DNA of 64,000 bases, from positions 117,118,001 to 117,182,000 of the forward strand of contig OX597815.1 in assembly GCA_951406725.2 (NCBI GenBank), given 5' to 3'. A program made the translations under genes and the position numbers. Every line of letters begins with the position of its first letter. Position 1 is the first letter of the stretch. This document shows, in pieces, positions 36,501 through 39,500 of this stretch. The notes under the pieces are model-generated. The model was given only the letters and a program-made list of their open reading frames with translations. It had not been told where the DNA came from and made no database searches. The DNA is from Octopus vulgaris (lineage: Eukaryota).

Positions 36501-39500
36501 TTGTAGTTGTAATACCTGTGCTGGTGGCATGTAAAAAGCATCATCCAAACGTGGCTGATGCCAGCACCGCCTTGACTGGCTTCTGTGCTGGTGGCACGTA
36601 AAAAGCACCAACCGATTGTGGCCATTGCCAGCCTCCCCTGGCCCCTGTGCCGGTGGCACATAAAAAGCTCCTACTACACTCACGGAGTGGTTGGCGTTAG
36701 GAAGGGCATCCAGCTGTAGAAACACTGCCAGATCAGACTTGAGCCTGGTGCAGCCTCCTGTGTGGCAGGCCTTGGTCGAACCGTCCAACCCATGTTAGCA
36801 TGGAAAACAGACGTTAAATGATGATGATGATGAAAGGGTAATCAATATATAAAAAGAAACAAATTACTGAACTTTTTGAATAATATCATACTTGGGAGCA
36901 TCACTATATATATAAAATTCAAAATAATCACAGGCATGATTGTGTAGTTAAGAAGCTCACTTGGCAACTGCTTAGTTCTGGGTTCTATTCTGTTGTGTGA
37001 CTTTAGTCAGATGTCATAGCCTTGTGTTGACTAATGCCTTGTGAGTGAAATTTAGAAAACAGAAACTGTAGAAGCCTGTACTATGTGTGTGTATATATAC
37101 ATACATATGCATGAATTCAAACATGCATGCATACATGTATGTGCAGCGTGTGCGCATGTGTATTTACACGAATGAAAGATGAGAACTGGTATATTGAAAC
37201 TGAAGTACCCTACTGTGCATGTCTGAATGAGTTATCTCCCCTTACTTCAGTTACTTCGTTGCATTTCGTACCTAATAGGCATAGGGAAATAAGCACCTAA
37301 CTTGGTGTTGGGATCACTATTATTATCATGCTCCAGCATGACCTCAGTTTAAAGACTGAAACCAGCAGTGAGAGAGAGAAATATATATAACCTGTCTTTT
37401 TCTTCTTCATGTGAGTGAACTATATTCTTGCCAAAATTTTTGTTTTCTATAATCTTCTCACACAATGACACACCATAAACCATTTAAAGTAAATATCTGC
37501 CTTCAGTTCATTGAACATCACTTAAAGAAAAATAATTATAAATTCAAAATTCTGAAGGTCCAATTAATTAAGAGCTCAGTACTTTAACTTGGAGAGCATA
37601 AATGAGCAAGCTTCATTTGATGTTTGGAGTTCTCATTAAAATATAGCAGTGTCAGAGTATCTTTTTATGTCTTAAATTCTCTGTTATGGTATTATCTTAT
37701 TGTAGAGTCTTTTCTGGCTTAAATTAGCTTTCATCATCATTACCATCATTTGGCTTTCACTTTTCCATGTTTGCTTGGGTCAGACAGAATTTGTTCAGAC
37801 AGATTTCTCTACAGTTGGACGCCCTTCCTGTCACCAACTCTTACCTGTTTCCAAGCAAGGTAATATTTCCAATGGTCAAACGTGTTTTTCATGGAAGAGT
37901 GAAAACAAACAATATCATTTGTATAATGGTGATGCTCATTTACAACTATCACATGATATTGAGAGAACACACACACGCATGTATATACATACACACAACT
38001 GGGTTCTTTGTTTCCATTTACCAAATTTACTCACTAGGCTTTGTTTGGCTTGGGGCTATATTAAAAGACACTTGCCCAAGATGCTGCATAGTGGGACTGA
38101 ACCTGAAACTTCTCAACCACACAGCCATACCTCTGTTTTAGTTCTGTTGAAATTTTATCCCTTCACTCACAACAGTTTATTTGCTTCCACTGTTATTTTT
38201 TCTTAGGAACATGAAACTGAAGTAACAACGTTGAAAGAAAAAATAAATCAATTAGAAGACTTAAATCAGCAGAACCTTGTCAAATTGCAGGAATTTGATG
38301 TAAGATTTTGGTTTTGTTTACTTTTGGCCTTTTGAAGTTAATCTTTCCTGACTAGTAATTTGCTATAATTGCCCATATGTTTTAAAAATATCTCTTTTAC
38401 TACTAAATTTATTACGCAAAAAAAAAAAAATTGCCATATCTATTTTCTACCTTCAGTTCTATATTTAAGAGATGAAGAATTATGTACATTATTTACATTC
38501 GACGGATATTTGTCCTCATCTTGTTTGTTGTTAACACAACGTTTCGGCTGATATACCCTCCAACCTTCTTCAGGTGTCTTGGGGAAATTTCTAGCCTGGG
38601 TTCTCATTCCTAAGGTATTTTTCGATGTTTTTGTTGTTATTGTTGTTGTTGTCGTTCAGGTCACTGCTTGGAATCGAACTCGGAATCTTGGAGTTAGTAG
38701 CCCGTGCTCTTAACCACTATGCCATATGCCCATGGGCATAGTGGTTAACCCCAAAATTCCGAGTTCGATTCCAAGCAGAGACCTGAACAATAACAATAAT
38801 AATAATAATAATAATAACATCGAAAAATACCTTAGGAATGAGAACCCAGGTTAGAAATTTCCCCAAGACACCTGAAGAAGGCTGGAGGGTATATCAGCTG
38901 AAATGTTGTGTTAACAACAAACAAGATAAGGACAAATATCTGTTGAATGTAAATAATGTATTTTCTACCTAATTGTTTAGTTCTCTTTCTTCATCTAATT
39001 CCACAATTAGTTACCTATTTCATTTTTGCATATTTACTCCATCTCTCCATTCCAACCATTAATTTCACAGTCAATTTGCACTGTAATTTGTGTTAACTTT
39101 TTTGAATAATTACATAATTCAAAGCACTGTTAGGCAGCATAGATATTATTATAAAATTTCTTATAAGGGTGGGACTTGAGGTTGTGGTGGAAAATAAACA
39201 AACTTTAGATTAGTTCAAATGTTTGGAACATATTTGACCTATATTACAGGTATCTTCACTGAGGTTTGCCATGGAGAAAAAGTCTCCCATTAGGCAAAAG
39301 GTATTAAAAATACCAAAGTCAGTTCAGAGTGCCTCTCATGGACTGGTACATGCATTTCTAAGACAACTCTGAAGACAGCTAAAGACTTCACTTCCTTATA
39401 AGAAGTCAGTAGATATCTACTAATTGCATGCATCAACCACCAGGCTGGAACAAAATATAGAGCTGGTACTCAAAGCAGTGATGTAAAATAAACAAATTTT

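Follow-up and report, generated by a model that had tools for sequence, protein, structure and literature searches.

A 506-bp insert in the window of Octopus vulgaris DNA analysed here (64,000 nt; assembly GCA_951406725.2, contig OX597815.1, positions 117,118,001 to 117,182,000) is an old head-to-head pair of solo pseudo-long terminal repeats (pLTRs) of an autonomous Penelope/Poseidon-type element. We regard its identity as a pLTR pair of a Penelope-like element (PLE) as close to certain. Each repeat contains a tRNA-like head, and we favour, with a probability of roughly 0.6, the reading that this is a PLE with a tRNA-type promoter and a predicted hammerhead ribozyme in its own ends, that the promoter starts the element RNA, and that thousands of short copies resembling short interspersed elements (SINEs) are shed from it. 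The original prediction, made from the sequence of the window, had proposed a separate, non-coding parasite of PLE machinery, driven by RNA polymerase III (Pol III).

As predicted, the insert lies between identical 12-bp repeats (TATTTTCTACCT) and consists of two arms placed head to head around the centre GCCCATGGGC. The left arm is 280 nt long on the minus strand, the right arm 226 nt on the plus strand, and the two are 91% identical over 215 nt. The palindrome falls short of the near-perfect one first described because a 34-nt tail at the outer end of the left arm has no match in the right arm. The gap of about 16-20 nt proposed between the right-arm boxes measures 16 nt, and another 7 nt are missing at the centre. 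Both arms carry A- and B-box-like motifs, then an (AAC/AAT)n linker and then a minimal hammerhead motif. The features, in positions of the window, are as follows.

38441-38452, plus strand: left target-site duplication (TSD), 12 bp, identical to 38959-38970; the family mode is 12-13 bp.
38453-38737, minus strand: left arm, the Penelope/Poseidon pLTR in complete form together with its tail; it comprises the tRNA-like head, the linker, the start of the open reading frame (ORF) with hammerhead, and the tail.
38453-38486, minus strand: PLE "tail" of about 34 nt, left arm only, with the long priming site (arm position 279-280) at its outer end.
38454-38607, minus strand: first 51 codons of the element ORF, open in the left arm; the frame runs on into the reverse transcriptase (RT) ORF in L080, L083 and L070.
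38533-38578, minus strand: minimal type I hammerhead with intact core, predicted to cut after the GUU ending at 38538; features match the minimal hammerhead ribozymes (min-HHR) of PMC4209133.
38628-38657, minus strand: (AAC/AAT)n linker of the left arm.
38655-38737, minus strand: tRNA-like head, cloverleaf lost, with a putative RNA start near 38737; of the six isotypes sampled, tRNA-Arg matches it best.
38714-38724 and 38670-38681, minus strand: A box and B box, respectively, of the left-arm head.
38728-38737, no strand assigned: head-to-head junction, with the native GCCC-NN-GGGC hairpin at the head 5′ end; hot spot of family 5′ ends.
38733-38958, plus strand: right arm, a second pLTR copy with the 16-nt deletion between the boxes; it ends at the short priming site, near arm position 248.
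38761-38772, 38785-38818 and 38838, plus strand: right-arm B box, linker and ATG.
38867-38912, plus strand: right-arm hammerhead, core decayed (GAAATGTT).
38959-38970, plus strand: right TSD of 12 bp, the first 2 nt of which are shared with the element tail.

Longer copies of the family connect these arms to a protein-coding element. Some copies extend upstream of the head into common sequence that translates as the end of a GIY-YIG-type endonuclease. At 29 of the 30 best loci for this ORF-end stretch the arm sequence lies directly downstream, starting at arm position 16 or earlier in 25 cases, while L057 has none; the tRNA-like head follows about 30 nt 3′ of the GIY-YIG stop codon. A PLE-type RT matching PF00078 is found further upstream, with frames broken in all copies read. 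Relatives of the encoded protein are proteins of 800-860 aa with PF00078, PF28514 and PF26215, among them PLE-like proteins of Anolis and echinoderms (~40%). Compared with an 836-aa Anolis protein, the RT is 40% and the endonuclease 31% identical. Pfam did not match a GIY-YIG domain in the upstream frame. The C-terminal endonuclease shows the pattern VYSIPCSCGRLYKGET..R..EH with a CxC in the core, and shares 31% identity over 162 aa with Anolis protein P0043 (E-value of 3e-26). It reads YKG for YIG and has a serine at the late asparagine position of Anolis (L037 1529-2026 on the minus strand, P0001, P0008); since both changes are common to relatives, they do not represent decay.

At the other end of the element, the upstream arm of full-length copies continues unbroken into the ORF. 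An ATG at arm position 126 opens the frame, so that the 3′ 153 nt of the arm are the first 51 codons of the ORF, and the ORF start in the left arm matches the N-terminus of the full-length relative P0008 (11 of 20 residues identical, E-value of 5e-5). Three loci (L241, L247 and L258) are natural near-full-length copies. The resulting order is ORF stop with TATAA, 28 nt, the head beginning with GCCC, A and B boxes, linker, ATG, hammerhead, end points at about 250 and 279, RT and GIY-YIG endonuclease. The left arm of the insert thus matches both the stretch 3′ of the ORF stop and the stretch 5′ of the RT ORF in longer copies. The copies also show the pLTR layout, with a partial tandem, an inverted 5′-truncated partner and a tail of 30-40 nt at one end. 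Because the arm follows the ORF end and runs on into the RT ORF, it is the pLTR plus tail of a ~2.9-kb Penelope/Poseidon-type element with RT and GIY-YIG domains, placed in the clade solely by similarity and domain order, and the tRNA-like head belongs to that element. The original prediction was therefore right about PLE machinery and about an inverted pLTR pair. The match it had suggested seeking, between the 3′ half of the arm and the pLTR of an autonomous PLE, extends to the whole arm, head included. A separate non-coding parasite that joins a tRNA head to a borrowed PLE tail does not fit these results.

The family is abundant, as had been expected. In the 2.8-Gb animal genome that contains the window (G000), exact searches with 24-29-nt arm pieces returned 3293 matches to the head motif and 5768 to the hammerhead motif, and a search with a stretch 37 nt upstream of the head returned 735; reversed control motifs gave none. 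The motifs match exactly in 7/30, 15/75 and 8/30 sampled copies, respectively, which puts the totals at roughly 14,000 heads, 29,000 arms with a hammerhead and 2,500-2,800 ORF ends. About 11,000 arms are estimated to begin at the tRNA head. With thousands of exact matches against none for the reversed controls, and TSDs against mismatched-flank controls (see below), the structure is not due to chance. Copies are ~6% diverged, mostly at CpG, and the copy at the locus is old and dead. Words of the insert were also found at 0.55-0.72 in runs labelled with five different organisms, and the family may be common to several related species. Among the runs listed for the stretch none was of RNA, which is evidence in neither direction.

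Among 90 copies, taken in genome order from the 3293 head-motif matches and including three small near-duplicate sets, an inverted partner lies at the head in 44, none was detected in 26, and 20 are ORF-linked. A hammerhead body lies within 720 nt of the head in 78 of the 90, and most of the other 12 stop at or before the AAT linker. Palindromic and monomeric forms thus both occur, while head-to-tail arm arrays were not seen among the sampled loci. Short and ORF-linked copies are alike in divergence (6.0-7.3% in the head, 5.6-6.0% in the body). After three near-duplicate loci had been left out, no alignment column distinguished 39 ORF-linked from 69 short heads, or 38 from 54 bodies, at p < 0.005 (lowest 0.01), and linked variants at positions 65 and 164 form the same two haplotypes in both classes. 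Since these variants are common to short and ORF-linked copies and the arm is colinear with the element, the short copies do not form a separate lineage, and would be by-products of the autonomous element without a lineage of their own.

This bears on how the insert is to be classified. Like tRNA-derived SINEs, the copies begin at the 5′ end with a head of tRNA origin that carries A and B boxes, but a distinct non-autonomous lineage, which that class calls for, is contradicted by colinearity with the autonomous element and by the lack of diagnostic sites. The class of non-LTR retrozymes, the other part of the original proposal, was rejected as head-to-tail tandem hammerhead units were not seen in the sampled loci. 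Membership in the PLEs agrees with all features tested, whereas the SINE and retrozyme classes each fail on a defining feature.

The insertions follow a regular geometry. Head-to-head pairs numbered 86 in 180 loci, with one locus entering the count twice. In 74 of these pairs one arm ends near position 279 and the other at 261 or earlier, where 43 would be expected if the two ends were independent (p 2e-12). ORF-bearing copies obey the same long/short rule. Exact TSDs of 10-15 bp, with a mode of 12-13, flank 38 of the 86 pairs, compared to 0/300 mismatched-flank controls, so the 12-bp repeats reported for the insert are genuine TSDs; 25 pairs have no TSD under the exact-match test. From this we infer twin priming, with staggered cuts, one tail site used per strand and the cDNAs joined at their far ends. 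In five copies (L242, L244, L246, L249 and L257), internal deletions fuse the 5′ part of the ORF to the 3′ pLTR in one insertion; the L246 copy bears a TSD of 13 bp. Such joints suggest that template jumps are frequent. Other repeats often interrupt the (AAT)n linker, which is also expanded in many cases (L095, L119, L159, L148). Three loci share the same foreign sequence, and L148 runs into an apparent RT of another long interspersed element (LINE), which suggests a microsatellite-targeting element.

The hammerhead motif reads GACAC-CTGAAGA-A-GGYTG-10 nt-CAGCY-GAAA-YGTT-GTGTT in both arms, apart from a C-to-T change in the right-arm core. Its features are those of a minimal type I hammerhead, with CUGANGA, one extra nucleotide after the core, stem II with G10.1-C11.1, GAAA, a palindromic stem III, NUH and a short stem I, as the original prediction of a PLE-type minimal hammerhead had it. 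All core motifs are kept in 24 of 84 copies. Stems I and II fold in both arms, with a z-score of about -0.4, so that the folding energy alone is not above chance; the z-score of the tRNA-like head is likewise not significant. At the locus, Rfam did not call the motif a hammerhead and ARAGORN did not call the head a tRNA. The stems of the 84 copies, all from a single family, show decay only, without compensatory pairs. The motif lies inside ORF codons 10-25, and the overlapping peptide is kept in the relative P0008, with an RT 52% identical. Minimal hammerheads of PLEs cut poorly alone (PMC4209133), and the hammerhead is dispensable for insertion in vitro (PMC11167929). Motif match and literature make the hammerhead a likely ribozyme that depends on help from protein or on dimerisation and that insertion does not need.

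The tRNA-like head is closest to tRNA-Arg among the isotypes compared (Arg, Ala, Thr, Cys, Lys and Glu), with z 6.6-6.9 against shuffled tRNA-Arg. Its cloverleaf is lost, as it also is in SINE heads. The head marks a sharp 5′ boundary. In the 90-copy sample, the 5′ end lies no more than 26 nt upstream of the head motif in 70 copies, and no more than 8 nt in 53 of these, while 20 run on for at least 63 nt; the end rate of 0.069 versus 0.002 per nt is a 34-fold step at the head. The same step appears in the drop from 3293 to 735 exact matches between motifs 37 nt apart. In a sample chosen by the hammerhead, the head start was reached in 11/30 copies and passed in 0/30. Fold-backs are absent from 44 of the 70 head-start copies, and none of the 70 keeps the element's own bases just upstream of GCCC. 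The G at the boundary lies 28 nt after a TATAA, which contains the ORF stop codon, and 13 nt before the A box. Such spacing of TATAA, start and A box is the geometry of a tRNA gene start. Two copies (L250 and L255) begin at the head and extend 343 and at least 852 nt past the tail into the ORF, and hence head-started templates have entered the ORF.

A further observation concerns runs of four T (T4). Across 2576 aligned columns (81 rows), no T4 run is common to 15% of copies on the sense strand, where codon-preserving null models expect 2.9 (P 0.022) and 4.0 (P 0.007). By comparison, PLE families of other organisms (12 clusters of 900 or more coding nt, from 80 loci) contain 86 T4 runs against 52 expected, with one of the 12 lacking any, and four LINE families of G000 have 2, 3, 7 and 13 runs per ORF stretch. 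The A/B-box pattern occurs in 2 of the 80 PLE control loci, neither at the pLTR position, though these relatives are only 27-52% identical. A search of G000 with P0008 for other PLE families gave 59 matches resembling the same family (2 checked, both the same family), so there is no PLE control from the same genome. Together, the box and TATAA geometry, the 5′-end step and the T4 gap suggest that the tRNA-like head probably acts as a Pol III promoter that starts the element RNA, and on Pol III the original prediction was thus probably right.

Several results weigh against a Pol III start. A bulged 9-bp hairpin spans the same boundary in ORF-linked RNA; 9 of 14 copies give it an energy of about -8 to -10 kcal/mol. 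In most of the 14 it ranks first or close to first in strength among local structures, and in L162 it is the strongest 30-nt window within 300 nt. Fold-backs of at least 9 nt occur in 13 of the 70 head-start copies and of 5-8 nt in another 13. Moreover, L245 and L256 extend upstream of an upstream head, so longer templates exist. In RNA labelled with a related organism, B (3 raw runs, ~6% of each, and one contig set), the boundary recurs as loose ends with mirror sequence in all three raw runs. These observations fit hairpin-ended reverse transcription of a long read-through or tandem RNA made by RNA polymerase II (Pol II), in which the RT, on meeting the junction hairpin, stops, folds back or changes template, and the tRNA-like piece, a captured SINE head, is a passenger. 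This is a serious rival, but we consider it unlikely, as the ends sit in the loop and 5′ arm of the hairpin rather than at the 3′ foot, where the RT would stall. Head starts fall at arm positions 1-9 in 11 of 15 head matches, most head-start copies have no fold-back, and box spacing, TATAA position and T4 gap would stay unexplained. The T4 gap is itself a property of one master sequence in which G4 runs are likewise absent (P 0.05-0.30), and a dinucleotide-shuffle null expects 2.6 T4 runs (P 0.062). An unbroken copy from head to last tail was found at none of 20 ORF-5′ loci, the closest being L247, which starts 38 nt into the arm. Reads of organism B, from libraries of unspecified strandedness, cover both strands equally, with a depth that tracks copy number and no discrete start or end; such symmetry and depth are expected of copies inside host transcripts.

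The TATAA spacing suits Pol II equally well. A true start by Pol II from the TATAA overlapping the ORF stop would agree with the 28 nt between the TATAA and the putative start, and give a capped RNA that could be translated. A Pol III start does not explain how an RNA that lacks a cap and has an upstream frame of 2 codons would be translated; Pol II read-through of tandem copies may supply the element protein. The PLE promoters investigated to date are described as LINE-like and internal, as in the Penelope of D. virilis (PMC2377424). For Pol II, the tRNA-like piece would be a downstream element or passenger; with A and B boxes at tRNA-gene spacing directly behind the start, an absence of T4 that is unexpected in Pol II retroelements, and a TATAA present only in tandem or 3′ pLTR context, we find this improbable. 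Least probable is an independent non-autonomous SINE or retrozyme lineage, amplified from its own short masters with PLE proteins. Short copies that start at the head make up about three quarters of those bearing one, the boxes and the lack of T4 in the body would permit their transcription by Pol III, and non-autonomous PLE derivatives are known (PMC8557442; bioRxiv 2026.07.22.740005). That the short copies share haplotypes and divergence with the ORF-linked ones, with no diagnostic base, that the whole arm is colinear with the autonomous element, and that tandem arm arrays were not seen all speak against it.

In the reading we prefer, a PLE whose RNA starts at its own tRNA-like head, an RNA begun there would reach the ORF without encountering TTTT. 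The element RT/endonuclease would cut both strands about 12 bp apart, and the two tail sites would prime the RT, one per DNA strand. Priming in the first tail of the RNA would give SINE-like cDNAs of ~280 nt, ending at the RNA 5′ end and joined head to head, whereas priming in the last tail would give ORF-bearing copies. An extended version, in which the ~2.9-kb element is transcribed by Pol III end to end from a captured tRNA promoter, with TTTT purged, the stop codon serving as TATA box and SINE-like offspring of its own arising by first-tail priming, is tentative, and we would not bet on it.

Among known systems, Poseidon_Ac (PAc) of Anolis carolinensis appears closest, and the 836-aa Anolis protein is inferred to be PAc. 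It shares the pLTR-ORF-pLTR structure, a ~2.45-kb ORF with RT and GIY-YIG, a hammerhead over the ORF start, two RT start sites or end points that bound a 30-nt tail, and AT-rich targets; cleavage of both strands and a predicted RT/endonuclease dimer are described for it (PMC11167929). Unlike PAc, for which the available text of that source describes no tRNA-like promoter, the octopus element has 5′ ends clustered at a tRNA head, and it assigns long and short ends one per side in 74/86 pairs, with TSDs of ~12 bp. A tail at one end with an inverted 5′-truncated partner is known from PLEs (PMC8557442, PMC4209133), and the insert is this arrangement cut down to two pLTRs. In contrast to known truncated PLE copies, the octopus truncation is non-random, with a fixed 5′ boundary at Pol III-type boxes.

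The resemblance to tRNA-derived SINEs lies in a degenerate tRNA head with A and B boxes and in short, high-copy insertions with TSDs and no internal TTTT. In this case the head belongs to the autonomous partner, the 3′ part is an ORF start instead of a LINE 3′ tail, and the insertions are mostly head to head, with no separate subfamily. The octopus SINEs OK, OR1 and OR2 were set beside the element by name only. SM-alpha of Schistosoma likewise places a type I hammerhead in a short repeat that is related to PLE pLTRs or descends from them. The same holds for animal non-LTR retrozymes (PMC7229834; bioRxiv 2026.07.22.740005); unlike these head-to-tail tandems, which give circles, the octopus copies are single or inverted, with a minimal hammerhead. 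The nearest analogues for a small-RNA-derived Pol III promoter in a retroelement terminal repeat, which the octopus element would share, are Cassandra, Helenus and Ajax (TRIMp3; PMC10886601). TRIMp3 are non-autonomous LTR elements whose autonomous partners are held to need Pol II (PMC10886601), while the octopus repeat is the pLTR of a protein-coding PLE. A PLE with a tRNA-derived or Pol III promoter was not found in searches of the literature, where the available text of bioRxiv 2026.07.22.740005 makes no mention of tRNA, though Repbase, Dfam, SINEBase or the repeat library of PMC13282606 may hold the family under a SINE or Penelope name.

About 140 bp 5′ of the insert lies an open stretch of 93 nt (38207-38299, plus strand), bounded by AG and GT and encoding a coiled-coil-like peptide. 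This is probably a host exon, and for this reason the insert probably sits in a host intron, in which its inverted arms, like those of other copies in host introns, would form long double-stranded RNA. Just 3′ of the insert is a degenerate direct repeat (39162-39285 and 39456-39579, spacing ~294 bp). Elsewhere in the window, ARAGORN called a tRNA-Leu(CAA) at 24112-24183 (minus strand), with A and B boxes and, after them, a run of T; by BLAST it is unrelated to the PLE head and is probably a tRNA pseudogene or another SINE head. G000 also holds a young CR1-like LINE family (L292-L320) with many open frames of at least 900 codons, and L266 contains seven tRNA-Cys-like genes clustered in 3 kb.

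Transcription and integration of PLEs are poorly understood. Whatever the polymerase, the thousands of two-armed insertions are a genomic record of twin priming, with one long and one short end and a stagger of ~12 bp, a prediction that can be put to the test with the purified anole enzyme. In genome annotation, ~11,000 arms would be classed as SINEs although they are PLE ends. If Pol III indeed drives the element, it would break the rule by which Pol II serves autonomous retrotransposons and Pol III is left to their SINE parasites, and would offer a route for the birth of a SINE from inside its partner.

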